Notes under the pieces: model-generated
The model's database searches: none
The model's input: only the letters and a program-made list of their open reading frames with translations
Told to the model about the DNA's origin: nothing
Virus record (IMG/VR): IMGVR_UViG_648276647_000007
DNA: 36,541 nucleotides
Source: a virus
Lineage: Duplodnaviria; Heunggongvirae; Uroviricota; Caudoviricetes
Direction: 5' to 3' (one strand)
Shown here: positions 2,259 to 35,513 of the stretch, piece after piece
Numbering within the stretch: position 1 is the stretch's first letter
Layout of the letters: each line of letters begins with the position of its first letter
Program-made: the position numbers and the translations under genes

Positions 2259-2287
2259 TGGGGAGGGCTTAGCCCTCCCTCTTTTTA
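2259..2287. terminator. GC-rich hairpin (gggagggc-tta-gccctccc) with T-tract, between convergent genes; probable bidirectional intrinsic terminator
   Basis: Perfect 8-bp inverted repeat at 2261-2279 followed by ctttttac; lies between the adhesin stop (2248) and the esterase stop (2285). Confidence 0.6.
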
Positions 2288-3328
2288 CAGGTTAGCGTTT
2301 GGGTTTTGTTGTTGGGGAGCTGTTTTTATAGGCGCTCCCAGGTTTTTAGTAAACCACTCAACGACTCTGTTTATAATAATTGGCTGATACCATGTCTTAT
2401 CGCCATGCTCGGCCCCTTCTACCAGCACGTACTCAGCGTTATCACCGTTCTTCTTCAACATCCTGAATAGTTTGGCGCTTTGCTCAGGTGAAACCAGAGT
2501 GTCTTTGCTACCATGCATAATAAGAAATGGGGGTTTTACTCCTTTCATATGTCCGATTGGACTGGCGTTTAGCGCTTTTTCTTTTGACGCTGTGATGGGG
2601 GCTCCCGCAAAATTTCTGAATGCAGGGCCATTGATCATTAAGGCTTCGGTTACGGCAGGAGAGCGATGAACCTCCTGCACTGATTCAGGGAACCCCTCGC
2701 CAATATTCAACAAGTCAGAAATCCCATAAAGTGTGGCAACTGCCTGAACATCTGAGGATTGCTGAAGAAAGTCACCTTTATCAAAGGTTTTGTCACCATT
2801 TGTAGTTCCCATCATCTGGGCAAGCCATCCACCGGCAGAGTCACCCAGAACTCCGATTCTTTGAGGATCAATCCCATAATTGCTGGCATGCTCTCTCAGG
2901 TAACGTATTGCAGCTTTTCCATCCTCAACTGGTGCTGGAAATGTATCAGGAATTGTTCTGTATTCTACAGCGGCCACAACAAAACCAGCTTCTGCCAGAG
3001 CCATTCTCATTTCAATAAATTTGTCATGTTCAGAAGACATGAATCCGCCGCCGGGATAATAAATAATGGCTGGTTTTAAATCATTTGTTCGCGGGACAAG
3101 AACTGACATGTGAAGCTGTCTGACAGAACGAGTTCCTTTTATCTGGGAATAAACAACATCACCAATGAGATCGACCTGGTTTCTGGTCGGTGAAACACTA
3201 ATGATATCTGCACCCGGGGTGTAACCAGGAAGATTAGTCTGGACAGGTGTTGCACAACTCCCGACCGACATGGCCATTGACATACCATACAATAGTGTTG
3301 CAGATGATAATATCTTGTTAATTTTCAT
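2285..3328 (-). CDS. Lipoprotein alpha/beta-hydrolase (esterase/lipase family)
   Basis: 347 aa ORF. N-terminal signal peptide with lipobox (MSVGSC), oxyanion-hole-like YYPGGGF motif and nucleophile-elbow GDSAGG motif of hormone-sensitive-lipase-type esterases. Confidence 0.7.
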   Translation of the reverse strand: MKINKILSSATLLYGMSMAMSVGSCATPVQTNLPGYTPGADIISVSPTRNQVDLIGDVVYSQIKGTRSVRQLHMSVLVPRTNDLKPAIIYYPGGGFMSSEHDKFIEMRMALAEAGFVVAAVEYRTIPDTFPAPVEDGKAAIRYLREHASNYGIDPQRIGVLGDSAGGWLAQMMGTTNGDKTFDKGDFLQQSSDVQAVATLYGISDLLNIGEGFPESVQEVHRSPAVTEALMINGPAFRNFAGAPITASKEKALNASPIGHMKGVKPPFLIMHGSKDTLVSPEQSAKLFRMLKKNGDNAEYVLVEGAEHGDKTWYQPIIINRVVEWFTKNLGAPIKTAPQQQNPNANL

Positions 3329-4684: not shown

Positions 4685-5043
4685 ATACTTACTGCATCAC
4701 ACTACCCTGGCCGCCGAGCAATAATCGCTATTACCGCCATAATCGCGGACGCACGCATATCAGCGCAGAGGGGCAGGCATACCGCGATAATGTCGCCCGA
4801 ATCATTAAAAACGCAATGCTGGATATCGGCCTGGCTATTCCTGTGAAAATCAGCATTGAGTGCCACATGCCGGATCGCCGTCGCCGTGACCTTGATAATC
4901 TGCAAAAGGCCGCTTTTGACGCACTCACCAAAGCAGGTTTCTGGCTGGATGATGCTCAGGTCGTTGATTACCGCGTTGTGAAGATGCCCGTTACCAAAGG
5001 TGGGAAGCTGGAGCTGACTATCACTGAACTGGGAGATGAATGA
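4681..5043 (+). CDS. rusA: Holliday junction resolvase RusA
   Basis: 120 aa; sequence ([18 protein letters not shown]...[16 protein letters not shown]...) matches my recollection of DLP12 RusA almost residue for residue. Start overlaps upstream stop. Confidence 0.85.
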
Positions 5044-5180
5044 TGTTTGAGTCTTATATGGCAGAACGTCTTCGCCGCCGCTGGGTGCGCCTGCGCTTAT
5101 ATCGTTTTCCTAGTTCTGTTTTGACCGATTACCGGATACTGAAGAATTACGCCAAAACACTGAAAGGAGCTGCCGCATGA
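5040..5180 (+). CDS. YlcG-like small basic protein (46 aa)
   Basis: Not in the ORF track. ATGATG start overlaps the rusA stop; its stop overlaps the start of the Q-like gene (ATGA). Size and position match DLP12 ylcG. Confidence 0.5.
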
Positions 5181-5866
5181 ATACCCAATATTTACAGTAT
5201 GTCCGCGAGCAACTCATTGTGGCTACCGCTGATTTGAGCGGAGCAACGAAAGGACAGCTTGAAGCCTGGCTGGAGCATGCACAATTTGATACTGGTACAT
5301 ACAAACGAAAGAAGCCGCGCATTCTGGATGAGGTAACTGGCAGGATGATTACGCTGGATAATCCGCCGATTTCCGGTAAGCAGTTGTACGCAAAAGGTTC
5401 ATCCATTGCACTGGTCAGCCAGGTTGAGTTCTCAACCTCGTCATGGCGCCGCGCGGTTCTGTCTCTCGAAGAACATCAGAAAGCGTGGTTGCTGTGGAGT
5501 TACAGCGAAAGTGTTCGCTGGGAACATCAGGTCACCATAACGCAGTGGGCATGGAGCGAGTTTAAGACTCTGTTGGGTACCAGGAAAATTGCAGGTAAAA
5601 CACTGGAACGTTTGAAGAAGTTGATCTGGCTGGCGGCACAGGATGTGAAGAACGAGCTGGCAGGGCGTAAGACCTATGAATACCAGGAGCTGGCATCACT
5701 GGTGGGAGTGACATCAAAAAACTGGTCTGAGACATTTACTGAACGCTGGATTGCAATGAAGCACATTTTTCTACAGCTTGATAGCCAAGCTTTATTGCTT
5801 TTAACGAAAACACGTTCAAAACAAAAGACCATATTTTCACAGCAAGATATTGCAAAACTGGATTAA
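5177..5866 (+). CDS. Late-gene antiterminator, Q-family (QuuD/QuuQ-like, not lambda Q)
   Basis: 229 aa ORF immediately upstream of a promoter/leader/terminator unit and the lysis cassette, which is the canonical Q position. No similarity to lambda Q itself that I can see. Confidence 0.55.
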   Translation: MNTQYLQYVREQLIVATADLSGATKGQLEAWLEHAQFDTGTYKRKKPRILDEVTGRMITLDNPPISGKQLYAKGSSIALVSQVEFSTSSWRRAVLSLEEHQKAWLLWSYSESVRWEHQVTITQWAWSEFKTLLGTRKIAGKTLERLKKLIWLAAQDVKNELAGRKTYEYQELASLVGVTSKNWSETFTERWIAMKHIFLQLDSQALLLLTKTRSKQKTIFSQQDIAKLD

Positions 5867-5878
5867 AAATCATATATT
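5850..5878 (+). promoter_or_regulatory. Candidate late promoter (pR'-like): TTGCAA - 17 nt - TATATT
   Basis: Sigma-70-like -35 (5850-5855) and -10 (5873-5878) with 17-nt spacing, just after the Q-like stop; expected site of Q engagement (qut). Confidence 0.45.
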
Positions 5879-5933
5879 TTATGTAAATCTGATATTTTGC
5901 CAATGTTGTACGCACTGGCAGTAATCCAAATTC

Positions 5934-5970
5934 AAGCCCGAGGTTTAAAGCCTTGGGCTTTTCTGTTTCT
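5934..5970 (+). terminator. Leader hairpin 1 (aagcccgagg...ccttgggctt) followed by T-rich tract
   Basis: Imperfect 10-bp stem with G-U pairs followed by ttttctgtttct; lies inside the late leader. Confidence 0.4.
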
Positions 5971-6045
5971 GAACGGTGAGTAGCCTTCCAACCTACCCCA
6001 GCCAGGGTGTCTTCAGTTGTTGAGTTGATATTGCTTAACCCTCTG

Positions 6046-6072
6046 TTGCCAGCTACATGCTGGCTTTTTTAT
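6046..6072 (+). terminator. tR'-like intrinsic terminator (gccagc-tacat-gctggc + T7)
   Basis: Perfect 6-bp GC stem plus tttttta about 190 nt downstream of the candidate -10. This mimics the lambda pR'-tR' 6S transcript arrangement that Q antiterminates. Confidence 0.55.
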
Positions 6073-6187
6073 TCCAGGCTTGCGGGGAGCATCAACTCCG
6101 TGCTTTGTCGTTAAATTACCCCGTGAGCCTGATTTCTGACATTTAACGTCCCGGCCTTTTGTCGGCGGCGAAACATTGGCTATTCAT

Positions 6188-6493
6188 ATGCACGAAAAAG
6201 AGAGCCTTGCCGGAGCGTTCTGGCTCGTTTTGCTGATCATCGCAGGTTGGGGCGGTCTGGTCCGCTACCTGATAGATGTGAAGCAGAGTAAAGCAACGTG
6301 GAGTTGGATAAATGCTCTGGCTCAAATAGTGGTATCAGGATTCACCGGTGTTATTGGTGGCCTGATCAGCATCGAAAGTGGATTCAGTATTTACATGATT
6401 CTCGCGACAGCGGGGATTAGTGGTGCGATGGGTTCGGTTGCACTGACGTACTTCTGGGAACGACTGACAGGGGTGAAAAATGCAAAATCTTAA
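6188..6493 (+). CDS. Holin (three predicted transmembrane segments; not lambda S)
   Basis: About 101 aa with three hydrophobic helices and a charged C-terminus, directly upstream of and overlapping the endolysin gene. The track ORF begins at a TTG at 6176; first ATG is 6188. Confidence 0.6.
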   Translation: MHEKESLAGAFWLVLLIIAGWGGLVRYLIDVKQSKATWSWINALAQIVVSGFTGVIGGLISIESGFSIYMILATAGISGAMGSVALTYFWERLTGVKNAKS

Positions 6494-6956
6494 TCCTCAG
6501 CGTAAAGCCTTCCTCGATATGTTGGCGTGGTCAGAAGGAACGGATAACGGGCGACAACCGACACGTAACCACGGTTATGATGTTATTGTTGGCGGCGAAC
6601 TGTTTACTGATTACTCCGATCACCCTCGCAAACTTGTCACGCTACACCCCAAACTCAAATCAACAGCCGCCGGACGTTATCAGCTTCTTTCACGCTGGTG
6701 GGATGCTTACCGTAAACAGCTTGGTTTGAAAGACTTCTCCCCCAAAAGCCAGGACGCAGTGGCATTACAGCAGATTAAAGAGCGTGGTGCTTTACCGATG
6801 ATTGATCGCGGTGATATCCGTCAGGCAATCGACCGTTGCAGCAATATCTGGGCTTCACTGCCGGGCGCTGGTTATGGTCAGTTCGAGCATAAGGCTGACA
6901 GCCTGATTGCAAAATTCAAAGAAGCTGGCGGAACGCTCAGAGAGAGTGAGGTATGA
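6480..6956 (+). CDS. R: Endolysin R (lambda-type lytic transglycosylase)
   Basis: 158 aa; near-identical to my recollection of lambda R ([20 protein letters not shown]...[21 protein letters not shown]...). Confidence 0.9.
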
Positions 6957-7405
6957 GCAGAATAACCGCGATTATCTCCGCTCTGGTTATCTGCGTCATC
7001 GTCTGCCTTTCATGGGCGGTTAATCATTACCGCGATAACGCGATTACCTACAAAGCCCAGCGCGACAAAAATGCCAGAGAACTGACGCTGGCGAACGCGG
7101 CAATTACTGACATACAGATGCGTCAGCGTGATGTTGCTGCGCTCGATGCAAAATACACGAAGGAGTTAGCTGATGCGAAAGCTGAAAATGATGCTCTGCG
7201 TGATGATGTTGCCGCTGGTCGTCGTCGGTTGCACATCAAAGCAGTCTGTCAGTCAGTGCGTGAAGCCACCACCGCCTCCGGCGTGGATAATGCAGCCTCC
7301 CCCCGACTGGCAGACACCGCTGAACGGGATTATTTCACCCTCAGAGAGAGGCTGATCACTATGCAAAAACAACTGGAAGGAACCCAGAAGTATATTAATG
7401 AGTAG
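6953..7405 (+). CDS. Rz: Spanin inner-membrane subunit Rz (i-spanin)
   Basis: 150 aa with N-terminal TM segment and coiled-coil body, start overlapping the R stop; lambda Rz-like. Confidence 0.85.
7173..7355 (+). CDS. Rz1: Spanin outer-membrane lipoprotein subunit Rz1 (o-spanin), embedded in Rz in the +1 frame
   Basis: 60 aa; lipobox LVVVGC and proline-rich [15 protein letters not shown] segment as in lambda Rz1; wholly inside Rz. Confidence 0.8.
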
Positions 7406-7445
7406 TGCAGATAGAGCTGCCCATATCGATGGGCAACTCATGCAA

Positions 7446-7739
7446 TTATTGTGAGCAATACACACGCGCTTCCAGCGGAGTATAAATGCCTAAAGTAATA
7501 AAACCGAGCAATCCATTTACGAATGTTTGCTGGGTTTCTGTTTTAACAACATTTTCTGCACCACCACAAATTTTTGCTGCATCGACAGTTTTCTTCTGCC
7601 CAATTCCCGAAACGAAGAAATGATGGGTGATGGTTTCCTTTGGTGTTACTGCTGTAGGTTTGTTTCCAACAGTAAACGTCTGTTGAGCACATCCTGTAAT
7701 AAGCATTGCCAGAGCGGCAGAAAACAACATTTTTTTCAT
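7446..7739 (-). CDS. bor: Bor outer-membrane lipoprotein (serum-resistance factor)
   Basis: 97 aa from MKKM (track ORF extends further 5'); lipobox LITGC; near-identical to my recollection of lambda Bor. Confidence 0.9.
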   Translation of the reverse strand: MKKMLFSAALAMLITGCAQQTFTVGNKPTAVTPKETITHHFFVSGIGQKKTVDAAKICGGAENVVKTETQQTFVNGLLGFITLGIYTPLEARVYCSQ

Positions 7740-8219
7740 CTTATTATCCTGCATTGTTAAAAACGGCAGAATCCTATGTGACAACAATTAAACGATAGTT
7801 AAATGGATTGATGAAAATTAAAACTACACAGGTGGGCTCAGACTATTGGAGGAAGTTGGGGACACTCAGAATCCTGTGGAATGAAATAAACCGGTCTATC
7901 CGTCCATTACCCTTTTAGCTGCGCTGTATCGTCGCCGTATTCCCGCATTAACCATGACCGTAGCCCGACGGGGAATTCCTTCTGCGTGAGTGTGCGGGAA
8001 TAATTAAAAACGATGCACACCGGGTTTTTACCGCGTTAATGATTCGCGGGTTTATCCCGGTGCGATGGTGGAAGAAACAGGAAGCTGTATTACAGAAAGT
8101 GCTACTACTGTATCCCGATGCGATGTATGTAATGTGAGTCAGATAATGGCACAGGATGTGGTGATGTGGCAGTCTGGAACACAGGATATATTGTCAGAAT
8201 AAGACCCGTAGGAATAAAA

Positions 8220-8546
8220 ATGAAAAGACGCCTTTTACTACTTTTTCTGTTATCTGTCCTGGCAGTGGGATGCTCGCAGCAAAAAGCTGATGAGCCCCGG
8301 CAATTAGTGACGGTGTATCCACGATATCCGGAATATGCTGCAGCAAATTATATCAAGGGGCTGGTTGAGGTTAAGTTCGATATTGGTGCTGATGGGACTG
8401 TGACACGGATCGTTTTTCTCCGCTCAGAGCCTCATAATTTGTTTCGTGATGAAGTGGTGAAGGCCATGGCGAAATGGCGATTTGAAAAGAATCGCCCCTG
8501 TCAGGGAGTGAAGAGACAATTTATCTTTACGCCGTCACGTCCTTGA
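8220..8546 (+). CDS. Small lipoprotein with TonB C-terminal-like domain
   Basis: 108 aa from MKRRLLLLFLLSVLAVGC (lipobox), then a YP.YP...A...G.V.V.F.I..DG.V......S......F...V..A...W.F pattern typical of TonB_C/TolA-like folds. Track ORF 8166-8546 starts upstream with no signal peptide. Confidence 0.5.
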   Translation: MKRRLLLLFLLSVLAVGCSQQKADEPRQLVTVYPRYPEYAAANYIKGLVEVKFDIGADGTVTRIVFLRSEPHNLFRDEVVKAMAKWRFEKNRPCQGVKRQFIFTPSRP

Positions 8547-8638
8547 TGCTTCCAGGTAGAGAGGGGCTGGAAGCAGGAGAAAAATGAAAGAGCCAGCGGT
8601 TATATTTTTGTCATGGCTGACGAGGAATGATGGAAGAA

Positions 8639-8662
8639 GGCGTTGTATGCCACACAACGCCT
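8639..8662. terminator. Hairpin ggcgttgt-atgccac-acaacgcc between convergent genes
   Basis: Perfect 8-bp stem followed by T-rich sequence on the + strand; separates the TonB-C-like gene from the minus-strand small genes. Confidence 0.45.
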
Positions 8663-8668
8663 CACTGT

Positions 8669-8848
8669 TCATTTCTTCTTTTTCTCTGGTGGAACCCGAT
8701 GAATAAGAGTTGCACTGGTTTCCGATGAGATGGCGATATACTCGGGCAAAGTATGCTGGCAGTTTTCCAACTGGTCAAAAATACCTGCTCTCGTCTGTTG
8801 CAATGCCTGCAGCATGCGGCGGCAATGCGCCTTGCTTTTACTAACCAT
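8669..8848 (-). CDS. Hypothetical small protein (59 aa)
   Basis: ATG at 8848-8846 preceded on the minus strand by a strong RBS (gaggaaggaaag). The longer track ORF 8669-9022 would overlap the next gene, so the internal start is preferred. Confidence 0.4.
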   Translation of the reverse strand: MVSKSKAHCRRMLQALQQTRAGIFDQLENCQHTLPEYIAISSETSATLIHRVPPEKKKK

Positions 8849-8909
8849 CTTTCCTTCCTCTATCAGTCGCTGCGTGAACTCATCATGGAATACCAGGTAA
8901 ATGCGGATG

Positions 8910-9161
8910 TTATCGGTTTTGGCTACGCAGCATAGTACAAAACGGACAGGTGCATCCCGGGACGGGGGAGGCGTCACATGTCCCTGTGATGGTTGTTCCG
9001 GGTAATGTACTGTGTGGGGCATAAAAATGTCCGATAATTTTACTTTCTACCGCAGTTAGTTGATTCGTTGGTCCTGGTAGCACATTGGGCGAGGATTTAA
9101 ATGCCAGGCAACTGAAGGATGATGTCGCAAGGGAGATAGCGAGAATATTTCTGATTTTCAT
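8910..9161 (-). CDS. Hypothetical small secreted cysteine-containing protein (83 aa)
   Basis: Start MKIRNILAISLATSSFSCLA (signal-peptide-like) preceded by GAGG; mature part has a CDASPVPGCTCPFC cluster. Confidence 0.4.
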   Translation of the reverse strand: MKIRNILAISLATSSFSCLAFKSSPNVLPGPTNQLTAVESKIIGHFYAPHSTLPGTTITGTCDASPVPGCTCPFCTMLRSQNR

Positions 9162-9309
9162 TTGATGATGCCTCTGTGTGAAATGACGGTAAACGACGCA
9201 CTTGTGCCGGCACATAATAGCAAGCACCATAATAGATCAGATTCGATTCTTGCTGTAAGTGATAATTATTCTCGTTTTCGGGTCCTTTCCGTCGATCCAA
9301 CAGGTTACG

Positions 9310-9321
9310 GGGCGGCGACCT
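9310..9321 (+). other. cos: cos site: cosN cohesive-end sequence GGGCGGCGACCT (flanking cosQ/cosB expected)
   Basis: Exact lambda 12-nt cohesive end, preceded by ...caggttacg and followed by cgcgggttttcgctatttatgaaaattttccggtttaaggcg, as at the lambda genome junction; Nu1 starts about 190 bp downstream. Confidence 0.85.
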
Positions 9322-9498
9322 CGCGGGTTTTCGCTATTTATGAAAATTTTCCGGTTTAAGGCGTTTCCGTTCTTCTTCGCCGTAACTTAATGTTTTTATT
9401 TAAAACACTCCCTGAAAAGAAAGGAAACGACAGGTGCTGAAAACGGGCTTTTTGGCCTCTGTCGTTTCCTTTCTCTGTTTTTGTCCGTGGAATGAACA

Positions 9499-10018
9499 AT
9501 GGAAGTCAACAAAAAGCAGCTGGCTGACATTTTCGGCGCGAGTATCCGTACTATTCAGAACTGGCAGGAGCAGGGAATGCCCGTTCTGCGAGGCGGTGGG
9601 AAGGGTAATGAGGTGCTTTATGACTCTGCCGACGTCATAAAATGGTATGCCGAAAGGGATGCTGAAATTGAGAACGAAAAGCTGCGCCGGGAGGTTGAAG
9701 AACTGCGACAGGCCAGCGAGACAGATCTCCAGCCAGGGACTATTGAGTACGAACGCCATCGACTTACGCGTGCGCAGGCCGACGCACAGGAGCTGAAAAA
9801 TGCCAGAGACTCCGCTGAAGTGGTGGAAACCGCATTCTGTACTTTCGTGCTGTCGCGGATCGCAGGTGAAATTGCCAGTATTCTCGACGGGATCCCCCTG
9901 TCGGTGCAGCGGCGTTTTCCGGAACTGGAAAACCGACATGTTGATTTCCTGAAACGGGATATCATCAAAGCCATGAACAAAGCAGCCGCGCTGGATGAAC
10001 TGATACCGGGGTTGCTGA

Positions 10019-10044: not shown

Positions 10045-13725
<3,681 letters not shown>

Positions 13726-24808: not shown

Positions 24809-28210
<3,402 letters not shown>

Positions 28211-31365: not shown

Positions 31366-32223
31366 CTAATTGGGTGATAACAGATCCTGTGTATGGGAGT
31401 TTCCCTTTTTGCGTGCGTTGATGCTGGTAACGGCAAACGTCATGATGAACAAAACCGCGAATAAGACGACAATCGTCGGAGCTGGTGCGCTGTCGATAAA
31501 AAAGGACAACCAGACACCAGTCATTGACACTATTACCGATATGCCAGTCGCCAGTAGGAGCGCAATATGAAAGCGTTGTGTCAGGAGTACCGCAATGGCG
31601 CCAGGCGCAATGAGCAGAGAAATGGAGAGAATGATACCTACCGCTTTCAGCGTCGCCACAATGGTCAGAGAGACCATGCACAGCAGCCCATAATGCAGCC
31701 ATCTCGTATGCAAACCGCTTACCTGCGCCTGTTGATAATCAAAGCTGAACAGCAAAAAATCCCGCCATTTTACGCTAATAACAAGTGTAACCAGCCCGGC
31801 AATAATCATCGTCTGGATTATATCGCCGATGGTTATCCCGAGCATGTCGCCGAAAAGAATATGGTCAAGATGTACGTCTGGTTTGACTGCAATATACAAG
31901 ATCAGACCTGCGGCAAACATGCCAGAAAAAACAATCCCCATCACTGTATCTTGCTTGATTCGGCTGTTGTCTTTCAGGTATCCCGTCGCCACCGCACAGA
32001 ATACTCCGGCGACGAATGCCCCTGTAGCCAAAGGTAACCCCAGAATCCAGGCAAGCACGATGCCAGGAAAAACCGCATGACTCATCGCGTCACCCATCAG
32101 TGCCCAACCTTTCAGGACCAGAAAGACCGACAGCAGCGCACAGGGTATGGAAACTACCAGTGAAATCAGCAGTGCGTGACTCATAAAGGTGAACTGCAGT
32201 GGCTCCAGTAATAATGCCATCAT
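31366..32223 (-). CDS. sitD: Mn/Fe ABC transporter permease SitD (ABC-3 family)
   Basis: 285 aa polytopic membrane protein, last gene of a four-gene minus-strand operon with overlapping start/stop codons; paralogous to the adjacent permease. Confidence 0.8.
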   Translation of the reverse strand: MMALLLEPLQFTFMSHALLISLVVSIPCALLSVFLVLKGWALMGDAMSHAVFPGIVLAWILGLPLATGAFVAGVFCAVATGYLKDNSRIKQDTVMGIVFSGMFAAGLILYIAVKPDVHLDHILFGDMLGITIGDIIQTMIIAGLVTLVISVKWRDFLLFSFDYQQAQVSGLHTRWLHYGLLCMVSLTIVATLKAVGIILSISLLIAPGAIAVLLTQRFHIALLLATGISVIVSMTGVWLSFFIDSAPAPTIVVLFAVLFIMTFAVTSINARKKGNSHTQDLLSPN

Positions 32224-33077
32224 GAGCGATCCTCCAGCGCCTTATGCGCACGCCGACGATTTGCCAAAAGCCCATGGGTGGGCGCAAAGACAAATGCTAA
32301 AAGAAACAGCAGTGTCTGCGCCACCACGATGATTCCACCTGTCGCGCCGTCCAGAAAGTAACTGACCCACGCGCCGAGGAAACTGGTTACACTGCCAATA
32401 GTTACAGCAATCATGAGCAGGCGGGGAAAACGATCGGTTAACAACCATGCTGTTGCACCGGGAGTCACCACCAGACAGATCACCAGAAAGGCACCAACCG
32501 TTTGCAGCGCCGCAACGGTCGAAACCGACAGCAGGGTGAAGAAGAGGAGTTTTAATCTGCCCGGATGCAATCCAATAGCACGGGCGTGATTCTCGTCGAA
32601 AAAGGTCACCATAAGATCTTTCCATTTGAAAAAAAGCACGATGATCGAGAGAATGCCAATGATAGTGAGTTGCAGGATATCCGCCGGATCGATTGCCAGA
32701 ATATTGCCCAGGACGATGGTCTGAATGTTCACAGATGTCGGGTTCAATGACACCATAAACAGCCCCAGGCCAAAAAAGGACGAGAAGATCAGACCGATGA
32801 TGGCATCTTCTTTTAAGCGGGTGCGTTGGTTAAGAAACAGCATGCTGCCCGCAGCCAGTCCGCCGGAAAAGAAGGCTCCCAGAGAAAACGGAAGCCCCAG
32901 CATATATGCCCCCGCAACACCCGGGACAATAGAGTGCGACAACGCATCGCCAATCAGCGACCAGCCTTTTAGCATCAGATAGCATGACAGGAAAGCGCAG
33001 AGACCGCCGACCATCGCCGAGACCCACATCGCATTGAGCATATATTCATAGCTGAAGGGTTCCAGTAGCACGTTCAT
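32220..33077 (-). CDS. sitC: Mn/Fe ABC transporter permease SitC (ABC-3 family)
   Basis: 285 aa polytopic membrane protein; operon position. Confidence 0.8.
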
Positions 33078-33901
33078 CTTTCTTCCCTCTGCACCGCTGA
33101 CGGTCGATGAGCCACAAAAGGGCGTTCATCGTCAGTAATAATGCTTTCTTCCGAGCCGTTAAGTGTGACATGGCGCAGTACGCCGCTAAAAGCCAGCTCT
33201 AGGTTCTCGGCTGTAAAAGTGGTGTCTGTCGGCCCGCTTGCCAGGACGGTGCCTTTGACCATGACCGTATAATCGCAAAATGTCGTGACGGATCCGAGAT
33301 TGTGTGTTGAGACAAGCATCGTTTTGCCTTCCGCGCGTAACTCCCTCAACAGGCTGATGATTTTGGCTTCGGTTTTCACATCAACGCCAGTAAAAGGTTC
33401 ATCCAGCAGGATCACATCACCCTGCTGTGCAATCGCTCTCGCCAGAAAGACGCGTTTCTTTTGTCCACCGGAAAGCTCGCCGATTTGTCGATGGCGAAAA
33501 TTCACCATATCGACACGTTCCAGCGCATCGGTGACAATTTGACGATCCCTCTTTTTGGCGATACGCAACATACCCATATGCCCATAGCGGCCCATCATCA
33601 CCACATCTTCCACCAGTACAGGAAATGACCAGTCAACATCTTCTGACTGAGGGACGTAGGCAACCAGGTTTTTCTGTAACGCCTGTCGCGTGGGAATACC
33701 CAGAACAGATATCTTTCCGCTGGTCAGACGCACAAATCCCATAATCGCTTTAAACAACGTCGATTTTCCGGAACCGTTTACCCCAACCAGAGCGGCAATA
33801 GATCCACTTGGTACTGTGAAGGATGCATCGCGCAGTGCTGTGTGCCCGTTACGCCAGGTGACAGTAACATCATTAACGACAATGCCTGCAGATTGCATCA
33901 T
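33074..33901 (-). CDS. sitB: Mn/Fe ABC transporter ATP-binding protein SitB
   Basis: 275 aa; Walker [13 protein letters not shown] signature LSGGQ, Walker B ILLDEP. Confidence 0.85.
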
Positions 33902-34815
33902 TATTTCTCCCTTTTCCCAGCTTTAATTCCCTGTACCAGCGTACTGGTAGTAACCTTAAGAAGGTCGATATACGTCGGTACCGGGCCGTTTTCTGTGCTC
34001 AGGGAATCGACATAGAGCACACCGCCGTAGTGTGCGCCGGTTTCACGCGCAACCTGACGCGCTGGTTTATCGGAAATCGTACTCTCGCTAAAGACTGCCG
34101 GGATATGATTTTTCTTAACTATATCAACAACCTTACGTACCTGCTGCGGTGTTCCTTGTTGATCGGCATTAATCGGCCACAGATAAAGCTCTTTTAGCCC
34201 CAAATCGCGTGCGAGATAAGAAAAAGCCCCTTCACTGGTGACCATCCATCGCTGATTCTCAGGGAGTTCCGTAATCTGCTTACGCAGGGGGGCAAGGATT
34301 TGGGTAATCTTGGCTTTATAAGTATCGGCATTGCGTTGGTAGGTTTGTGCATTTGCCGGATCGTATTTTATCAACGCATCACGAATATTATCGACGTAAA
34401 TCAGAGCATTATCTGGCGACATCCATGCATGGGGGTTAGGTTTGCCCTCATAGGGTCCTTCGGTGATCCCTACAGGCGTCACACCCGAAGAGACAATTAC
34501 TTCTGGAACCCCATTGAGATGCTGGTAAAAGCGTTGGAACCACAATTCCAGATTCATACCATTGGCAAGAATCAGTTGTGCCCCCTGCGCACGTTTAATA
34601 TCGCCAGGGGTAGGCTGATACTCATGAATTTCTGCACCAGGCTTGGTTATGGATGAGACTTCTGCAGCATCTCCCGCCACGTTTTTGGCCATATCCGCGA
34701 TGATGGTAAATGTTGTAATGACCTTGAATTTTTCAGTTGCACTTGCCTGAAATGCGATCGAGCAGGTGAGTGCGAGCCCCCCCAAGAGCATGGTTACTTT
34801 TTTTATCGAGTGCAT
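33901..34815 (-). CDS. sitA: Periplasmic Mn/Fe-binding protein SitA (TroA/cluster-9 substrate-binding protein)
   Basis: 304 aa with signal peptide; first gene of the operon. Sit/Yfe/Mnt family by motif recall; exact orthologue name unverified. Confidence 0.8.
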
Positions 34816-34847
34816 AATTTAGTACCTATAGTGAGCAAAATTAGAAC

Positions 34848-34869
34848 AAACATAGCAACGGCTATGTTT
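34848..34869 (-). promoter_or_regulatory. Candidate MntR operator (palindrome aaacatagc-aacg-gctatgttt) upstream of sitA
   Basis: Perfect 9-bp inverted repeat matching the enterobacterial MntR-box consensus as I remember it, about 35-55 bp upstream of the sitA start. Confidence 0.5.
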
Positions 34870-34888
34870 TATAGCACAGCCTATACAA

Positions 34889-34909
34889 AATGAAAATGAT
34901 TATCATTAG
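34889..34909 (-). promoter_or_regulatory. Candidate Fur box (aaaatgattatcattagc) upstream of sitA
   Basis: 13 of 14 match to the AATGATAATCATT core of the Fur consensus GATAATGATAATCATTATC. Confidence 0.5.
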
Positions 34910-35513
34910 CAGCTTTGAGGCCCAAAACAGGGATTAGGTTGTTTCCTGCTGGCGACGCGTTATTGAGGAAAAAAGTAAGGCAGCTAGTAGGCTTTGAAAT
35001 AACGTTTTGCGGTTGGCTGATGCAATTTCGAGAGTGCATGTATTGAATGATTTCTAGCCGTTACTGATTTTCGTATTTTTTGTATGGGAGGATTTGCACC
35101 TCCCCCCACCGAGCCTCCATGACTTTACTCCACTGTCTCTAGGGCTGCTGTGTGCCAGGAGCGGAAGCAGGGGGGCCAGAGACTCCTTAAAAGTTGATAG
35201 CTCGTTTTGCAGGGAGACTTACACGGTAAGCGTTATTCCGAAGAGCTTAAAATTGAAGCAGTCAAACGGGTTGTTGAGCGTGTTTATGCGCTGCCATCTG
35301 ATTAATCGACGGAAGCAGTTCCGTTTGGTCTATGATGCAGTTGTCCGGCAGGCGCTCTGTGACGCAAAAGAACGATAGGAGTAGCATTGAAGTGAACGAG
35401 GTTATGCTTGTCTTATATTATCCTCTATTTTAAAAACATCAGCTGGTTGTGTAAGAGTTTTTATTGTTTTATCTTGTTGACTTTGCTTTTATGAAAACAG
35501 AGTGATTGATACA

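Follow-up and report, generated by a model that had tools for sequence, protein, structure and literature searches.

The DNA analysed here, which we call the window (36,541 nucleotides of the IMG/VR virus record IMGVR_UViG_648276647_000007, Caudoviricetes), is the late region of a lambdoid phage, and the subject of this work is a gene within it that encodes a short lipoprotein with a TonB C-terminal (TonB_C) domain. The genes of the window run from one in the position of the antiterminator Q (5177) through holin, endolysin, Rz/Rz1 and bor to the TonB_C gene and then, on its 3' side, through cos (cosQ at ~9280), Nu1 (9499), terminase A and the head and tail genes to J (24812-28210), beyond which lie lom, a side tail fibre gene and a sitABCD-like operon. 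A preliminary description, made from the letters and the open reading frames (ORFs) alone, had noticed a 108-aa lipoprotein with the lipobox LAVGC between bor and cos; the location was confirmed, as was the protein, by translation of the ORF and by a PROSITE-type rule. The gene and its parts are the following:

8220-8546, + strand: coding sequence of the TonB_C lipoprotein, 108 aa, stop codon included, from the ORF list and its translation
8210-8213, + strand: Shine-Dalgarno sequence AGGA, 6 nt before the ATG at 8220, annotated as the ribosome-binding site (RBS) in phage 21
8220-8273, + strand: predicted lipoprotein signal peptide MKRRLLLLFLLSVLAVG with the lipidated Cys18, by the PROSITE-type lipobox rule
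8274-8294, + strand: flexible tether, residues 19-25 (SQQKADE), where the per-residue confidence (pLDDT) of the AlphaFold2 (AF2) model is <50 at 19-21 and low to ~26
8295-8534, + strand: TonB C-terminal domain, residues 26-105, from the ungapped alignment to TonB and the AF2 model

The domain contains the PxYP motif (residues 34-37) and the strand beta3 (94-103), and it lacks the final ~6-9 residues of TonB, the protein ending shortly after beta3. The Pfam search that had been proposed as a check gave TonB_C (PF03544) at E=7e-13 and 49.2 bits, above the gathering cut-off of 24.6; TIGR01352 was matched with 47.4 bits (cut-off 27.1), and the best matches of a phmmer search against the PDB were all E. 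coli TonB C-terminal domains (E ~1e-14). The alignment to residues ~150-230 of E. coli TonB is free of gaps, residue q of the protein corresponding to TonB residue q+127, with ~40% identity over roughly 80 residues. TonB residues P161, Y163, P164, F180, G186, F202, W213 and F230 are retained (here P34, Y36, P37, F53, G59, F75, W86 and F103), and the conserved aromatic core of the domain is present. Among the substitutions, Y215 is replaced by F, Q160 by Y33 (by L in a second E. coli version of the gene, called type 2 below) and R166 by Y39.

Structure prediction, the second of the proposed checks, led to the same domain. A first AF2 run with 6 close sequences reached a pLDDT of 61; its top structure matches were TonB domains, with weak scores, and a search of viral folds (BFVD) with this low-confidence model gave nothing meaningful. 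The model used here was built on an alignment of 36 diverse family members and has a pLDDT of 86.5 overall and >95 across residues 27-105. It consists of a helix, two strands, a helix and strand beta3, as in the TonB C-terminus, and it superimposes on TonB in the BtuB:TonB complex (2GSK_B) with a root-mean-square deviation (RMSD) of 1.0 Å and a template modelling (TM) score of 0.92, and on TonB in the FhuA:TonB complex (2GRX_C) with an RMSD of 0.9 Å and a TM score of 0.91. Foldseek comparison with 1U07, 2GSK_B and 2GRX_C gave a probability of 1.0, TM scores of 0.88-0.92 and RMSDs of 0.9-1.2 Å. The preliminary description had spoken of a TonB_C/TolA-type pattern: the TonB half of this claim stands, on Pfam, TIGR01352 and Foldseek alike, and the TolA half falls, TolA-III structures reaching a TM score of only ~0.4 with E>0.1.

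With the E. coli TonB C-terminal domain (2GSK, 2GRX, 1U07; PF03544) the protein therefore shares the fold, PxYP, the aromatic core and beta3. It differs in that a lipoprotein signal replaces anchor and spacer, so that attachment is predicted at the outer and not at the inner membrane, in that it ends soon after beta3, and in having Y or L for Q160 and Y for R166. A functional TonB orthologue, that is, an energy transducer, was considered and rejected. The NCBIfam equivalog models of full-length TonB gave 45-69 bits against cut-offs of 265-448 (the best, 69.2 bits, against 315), only their C-terminal ~80 positions being matched; an 18-residue lipoprotein signal stands in the place of the N-terminal transmembrane anchor, and there is no long proline-rich periplasmic spacer, just 16 residues separating Cys18 from PxYP. 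Since both the anchor and the proline-rich spacer are missing, the protein cannot couple to ExbB/ExbD or transduce energy and can do nothing but bind.

Residues 1-18 (MKRRLLLLFLLSVLAVGC) conform to the PROSITE-type lipoprotein rule, MKRR-LLLLFLLSVLAVG-C having the basic n-region (MKRR) and the hydrophobic h-region of that pattern, and the type-2, Salmonella, K. pneumoniae, Rahnella and Erwinia/Pantoea members of the family conform to it as well. In the sorting of E. coli lipoproteins, Asp at position +2 is the Lol avoidance signal. Here the residue after Cys18 is Ser, not Asp, and +2 is S, T or A in all family members that pass the lipobox rule. With Ser at +2, Lol sorting to the outer membrane is predicted; lipidation and outer-membrane location are both predictions from the lipobox and the +2 residue. 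The spacing from the Cys to PxYP, 16 residues in this protein, is 16-24 residues in the lipoprotein members, with a single outlier at 52.

The protein is 100% identical to CPT_21_73 of phage 21 (UMO75484.1), whose annotation reads 'TonB C-terminal domain protein'; elsewhere the protein goes by the names 'TonB family protein', 'TonB fragment' and 'partial tonB-like membrane protein encoded within prophage CP-933N'. At a nucleotide identity of at least 95%, the gene is present in 1225 of 5426 complete E. coli genomes, where the name given by PGAP is 'TonB family protein'; in the O18 strain examined it adjoins iss. By tblastn the protein was found in only 15 phage records, and ~220 viral contigs of IMG/VR carry relatives. 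The TonB homology is therefore already known, being annotated in GenBank and RefSeq. As far as we could find, what is undescribed is the definition of the family, its conserved lipid anchor and short tether, its post-lysis position and its linkage in Serratia to colicin immunity; our literature search found no study of the function of this gene, which is absent also from the text of the phage 21 genome announcement.

An exhaustive HMMER search returned 2795 matches, among the best of which proteins of 107-133 residues align end to end at 35-46% identity. Short members form clusters in Salmonella enterica, Klebsiella pneumoniae, K. michiganensis/grimontii, Gibbsiella, Rahnella, Erwinia and Pantoea, the named clusters being nearly all called 'TonB family protein', and a later profile search added Serratia and further Pantoea members. 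Most members have a lipobox; in a Serratia subgroup, and perhaps in the K. michiganensis group, an ordinary signal peptide takes its place. The lipobox, a +2 residue other than Asp and the short tether are kept across the E. coli, Salmonella, Klebsiella, Rahnella and Erwinia/Pantoea members, and length and architecture are constant down to ~35% identity. The ratio of nonsynonymous to synonymous substitution (dN/dS) is 0.12 between types 1 and 2 of E. coli (with dS near saturation), 0.17 for a Salmonella pair and 0.31 for a Klebsiella pair, values which indicate that selection maintains the gene and that it is no decaying piece of tonB. What emerges is a family of short proteins in the Enterobacterales, either lipoproteins or periplasmic proteins, that evolves under purifying selection.

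In Serratia, an immunity gene of the colicin-E1 type is preceded, at 67 bp and on the same strand, by the gene of a soluble periplasmic family member, and the pair converges on the gene of a pore-forming colicin with ...DDGDSMTVTG... in its N-terminal region; the DSMTV pentapeptide resembles TonB boxes, both those of transporters and those of group B colicins. This TonB_C/immunity/colicin set (5001-7510 of locus L134, 5001-7447 of L140 and 4001-6498 of L142) stands on three backbones: a chromosomal island, a plasmid-like contig that also bears KfrA and toxin-antitoxin genes, and a conjugative plasmid of S. proteamaculans. The TonB_C gene also occupies the chromosomal site in the absence of the colicin. 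The periplasmic Serratia protein may have an auxiliary immunity function. On K. pneumoniae IncF plasmids, a lipoprotein member precedes the gene of the Exc2 lipoprotein and a cloacin immunity gene. We give this linkage little weight, because its 13 records are essentially one lineage and because cloacin-type toxins, cloacin DF13 among them, are Tol-dependent.

The best reading of this gene, in our judgement, is that it encodes an outer-membrane-tethered TonB decoy that occupies TonB boxes, a reading we advance tentatively and would stop just short of calling probable. The lipoprotein would display a complete TonB C-terminal domain at the outer membrane on its tether of ~16 residues and, being uncoupled from ExbB/ExbD, this domain would only bind. 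Its likeliest partner would be the TonB box, a strand at the N-terminus of both transporters and colicins that depend on TonB, which would pair with beta3. A TonB domain held within a few nm of the inner leaflet of the outer membrane would be well placed to occupy TonB boxes there and would compete for them with the cell's own TonB. The outcome would be less TonB-dependent entry of T1/phi80-type phages, group B colicins, microcins and siderophore-linked drugs, and the price would be some loss in siderophore uptake. The binding to TonB boxes, the exclusion phenotype and the timing of expression are what we infer from the architecture and the setting of the gene.

Published results bear on what such a protein would bind and on the effect that this would have. 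The interaction with the TonB box is governed by secondary structure more than by side chains (PMC11658791). According to a summary of earlier work, an overproduced periplasmic TonB domain inhibits iron import through TonB-dependent transporters (Howard et al. 2001, PMID 11566987, as summarised in PMC9841981). Like the protein described here, these engineered fragments are stand-alone periplasmic domains uncoupled from ExbBD, and they inhibit import by transporters (PMC9841981); they are soluble, overexpressed laboratory constructs, whereas ours is a natural gene of a mobile element with a predicted lipid anchor. Moreover, a small lipoprotein of phage T5 jams FhuA from the periplasmic side (PMC9586334). 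This protein, Llp, and Cor of phi80, N15 and T1 are small phage lipoproteins at the inner leaflet of the outer membrane, acting on the periplasmic face of TonB-dependent transporters, and in this they resemble the TonB_C lipoprotein (PMC9586334). Llp differs, however, in binding the plug of FhuA and not a TonB box, and in being specific for a single receptor; cor and llp adjoin the gene of the receptor-binding protein, whereas the TonB_C gene lies between the lysis and the packaging genes, with J at a distance. A kinship with Cor or Llp in sequence or fold was rejected: no Cor/Llp family was among the PHROG or Pfam matches, and the fold search returned only TonB domains. The C-terminus of J, taken as a guide to the receptor of the phage itself, had no match >90% to a phage with a known receptor. 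Taken together, the Serratia linkage to a bacteriocin immunity gene and the features common to the whole family lend indirect support to a TonB-C mimic acting on TonB-dependent receptors, as the preliminary description had suggested.

Several points weigh against a TonB decoy: (i) A constitutive inhibitor of TonB should be costly for iron-hungry extraintestinal pathogenic E. coli (ExPEC), and yet the gene is common in these strains; expression may therefore be weak or confined to the late lytic phase, in which case the benefit of blocking TonB is unclear. (ii) The gene is on the strand of the late operon, after the lysis genes, and no separate lysogenic promoter was found, the promoter scan giving no sigma-70-like site on the + strand within 7400-9500. 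(iii) With Q160 of TonB changed to Y33 (L in type 2) and R166 to Y39, the contact surface is not identical to that of TonB. (iv) The gene is away from that of the receptor-binding protein, unlike cor and llp. (v) Some chromosomal members have neither phage nor bacteriocin genes as neighbours. (vi) The linkages to bacteriocin genes have limits of their own: that on the Klebsiella plasmids is weak, being to a cloacin-type module in what is essentially one lineage, and the Serratia members, none of them a lipoprotein, have only ~32% identity to this protein.

Alternatively, the TonB-fold module might have a different partner, some other periplasmic strand or ligand (peptidoglycan, for instance, another protein of the outer membrane, or one that belongs to a phage or bacteriocin), and have a role apart from competition with TonB, for example in envelope stabilisation or in virulence, as bor/iss and lom do. 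The changed positions Q160 and R166 speak for such a partner, and so do the chromosomal members in Raoultella, Klebsiella spp. and Pantoea, whose neighbours are unrelated, the adjacency of the gene to iss/bor in ExPEC prophages and the presence in the phage of further cargo of benefit to the host, namely lom and sitABCD. We nevertheless consider this explanation unlikely: by far the nearest structures are TonB domains bound to the TonB boxes of transporters, the lining of the TonB-box site, strand beta3 and the PxYP segment, is kept, and none of the neighbourhoods points to an alternative partner.

The position of the gene suggests a different role again, in lysis. The genes that matter here are the following:

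6953-7405: Rz, with the embedded Rz1 at 7173-7355, a complete pair in the phage of the window, 0.8 kb upstream of the TonB_C gene with bor in between
7446-7739, - strand: bor

In the window and in prophages the gene order is lysis cassette, TonB_C gene on the same strand, packaging genes. This post-lysis position was found in 36 of 39 prophage loci from Salmonella, Klebsiella and metagenomes, the gene lying 0.35-2 kb (up to ~3 kb in a few loci) downstream of the endolysin or Rz/Rz1 genes and upstream of terminase, and it is kept even though the holin, endolysin and spanin genes of the Salmonella and Klebsiella prophages belong to other PHROG families. The type-2 E. coli phages have the same layout: Rz/Rz1 is followed by what reads, from its ORFs, as a toxin-antitoxin-like pair, then by a Bro/KilA-like ORF, the TonB_C gene, an HNH endonuclease-like ORF and terminase. 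Furthermore, the protein matches PHROG 1267 (E=5e-43, window positions 8220-8543), a family labelled 'Rz-like spanin', and it has no promoter of its own that we could find. It could accordingly be an envelope protein made with the late lysis genes that aids the breakdown of the envelope or its timing and gives no protection against incoming agents; it might do so by tethering to peptidoglycan or outer-membrane proteins, or by shutting down TonB cycling before the holin is triggered.

We judge this role in lysis to be quite improbable. The phage already has a complete Rz/Rz1 pair; PhiR34_1 and Lambda_2E9, which lack the gene, keep the Rz/bor block and have, by their annotation, a seemingly complete set of lysis genes; and the chromosomal and plasmid homologues have no lysis genes nearby. 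In lambdoid phages the interval between lysis and packaging genes is a usual site of accessory genes, bor being an example. As for the PHROG label, it seems to derive from the position and the lipoprotein nature of the protein and not from homology to spanins, since the phage has an Rz/Rz1 pair of its own. Rz1-type outer-membrane spanins are likewise small outer-membrane lipoproteins encoded beside the lysis genes, but they are short and proline-rich, whereas the TonB_C lipoprotein has a globular TonB fold. Spanin identity was rejected: Rz with its embedded Rz1 is already there as a spanin pair, and bor separates it from the TonB_C gene.

That the gene is a functionless remnant, a piece of bacterial tonB captured by a phage and hitch-hiking beside cos, is very improbable: older annotations ('partial tonB-like membrane protein', 'TonB fragment'), the many truncated copies in databases and the near-identity of the type-1 copies across E. 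coli, which by themselves carry little signal, would suit it, but diverged copies give a dN/dS of 0.12-0.31, a lipoprotein signal absent from TonB was added and kept across genera, length and architecture persist down to ~35% identity, and identity to E. coli TonB of only ~40% argues against a recent capture.

The TonB_C gene lies in a replacement cassette, and the features in and around it are:

7920-8219, + strand: conserved upstream region, ~300 nt common to the type-1 and type-2 modules (blastn, and alignment with the type-2 locus L076)
8082-9253: replacement cassette of the phage-21 type, comprising the TonB_C gene and small ORFs, absent from lambda-type relatives
8547-8575, + strand: inverted repeat just 3' of the stop codon, with 9-nt arms and an 11-nt loop

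Over window positions 7400-9500, Escherichia phage PhiR47_2 is 99.8% identical, and phage 21, ev017 and Perceval are 99.9% identical over ~91% of that interval. The homology of PhiR34_1 and Lambda_2E9 stops at 8028, has a 25-nt island at 8057-8081 and restarts at 9254; with lambda-type sequence shared only in these parts, the ~1.2 kb at 8082-9253 are a replacement cassette, which stands in place of ~400 nt in the two phages. The preliminary description had called the gene moron-like, bracketed by its own upstream repeats and a downstream hairpin terminator. It is a moron in the sense that some related phages have it and others lack it between flanks that are conserved, as an insertion relative to the lambda type; an autonomous unit with repeats and terminator of its own was not supported. 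The upstream repeats proved to be a 15-mer (8053/8111) and an 8-mer (8150/8180), short and in two copies each, and neither is kept in the 72%-identical type-2 module. The hairpin at 8547-8575, by the usual criteria no intrinsic terminator, has no U tract, folds no better than shuffled sequence (z-score -1.06), was not listed by the terminator scan and was not found downstream of type-2 genes; the AGGAG-ATG of the next small ORF follows directly after it. Correspondence of the gene to an ORF of lambda itself was not borne out either: lambda is not among the 15 phage records found by tblastn, and the homology of the flank ends at 8028/8081.

Within the conserved upstream region lies a stable imperfect hairpin (8018-8062, -26 kcal/mol, z -3.2), ~160-200 nt upstream of the TonB_C gene and partly common to lambda-type phages, and at the position of the RBS the alignment with the type-2 module has GGGAA. 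An Rfam scan of 7300-9600 at a permissive threshold gave only chance-level miRNA-type matches, and no Fur-box-like site was found upstream of the TonB_C gene. The second-best Fur-box-like site of the window (9255-9279, 15/19) adjoins cosQ; it belongs to the cos-proximal block that is shared with cassette-less phages and is therefore uninformative about the TonB_C gene. In the 73 type-1 loci, the spacing from the gene to the downstream small ORFs is fixed in all but one (72), Nu1 was detected at a near-constant distance in 67, and only 45 have bor.

Annotations disagree on the putative small ORFs that separate the TonB_C gene from cos (8584-9161, both strands). Phage 21 and RefSeq have ORFs of 40 aa (8584-8706) and 60 aa (8753-8935) on the + strand. 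On the - strand, a 59-aa ORF (8848 down to 8672) matches phrog_4843 (E=3e-46), and an 83-aa ORF (9161 down to 8913) has a signal peptide and a Cys-rich C-terminus. The defence models of PADLOC matched neither the TonB_C lipoprotein nor these small ORFs.

Elsewhere in the window, downstream of the tail-fibre genes, lies a sitABCD-type Mn/Fe ABC transporter operon (31366-34950, - strand), and the best Fur-box match of the window (34892-34910, 17/19) is just upstream of sitA. The sit operon occurs in 27 phage records, phage 21 included. Every one of the 7 type-1 phage records has sit, but the TonB_C gene is missing from 20 of the 27 sit phages and the type-2 carriers have no sit, which led us to reject a functional link; the co-occurrence with the type-1 gene is probably due to shared ancestry. 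Upstream of the Q/lysis region, a 694-aa ORF (164-2248, + strand) without an NCBIfam match and an esterase/lipase-like ORF of 347 aa (2285-3328, - strand) may be further accessory cargo. Outside the window, the Pantoea dispersa plasmid NZ_CP045217.1 has a coding sequence of ~144 aa annotated as 'TolA' (locus L146 1-65, record 11347-11781) at ~5 kb from the gene of a TonB_C lipoprotein; by analogy, its product could be a decoy made of a stand-alone TolA domain.

Even if the decoy reading is wrong, the gene is that of a widespread, selected prophage lipoprotein that goes under misleading labels, 'Rz-like spanin' in PHROGs and 'TonB fragment' elsewhere. If it is right, a very common prophage gene, often located beside iss/bor in ExPEC, would tune the whole of TonB-dependent import and not a single receptor. 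The sensitivity of its carriers to T1/phi80-type phages would be altered, with consequences for host range in phage therapy, as would that to group B colicins and microcins, with a bearing on competition in the gut; siderophore uptake would be affected, and possibly also susceptibility to siderophore-cephalosporins. The protein would be a natural counterpart of the dominant-negative periplasmic TonB fragments and would represent a second structural class of phage lipoproteins acting on TonB-dependent transporters. A more general proposal, possible but in our view somewhat doubtful, is that mobile elements of the Enterobacterales (lambdoid prophages, conjugative plasmids and bacteriocin islands) use stand-alone TonB C-terminal domains, tethered or periplasmic, as a general 'import immunity' that sequesters TonB boxes, both those of transporters and those of group B bacteriocins on their way in. 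If this were true, import immunity would blunt the action of TonB-dependent phages, colicins, microcins and siderophore-antibiotic conjugates, and it would be a receptor-independent form of exclusion, distinct from that of Cor and Llp, carried by >20% of complete E. coli genomes.

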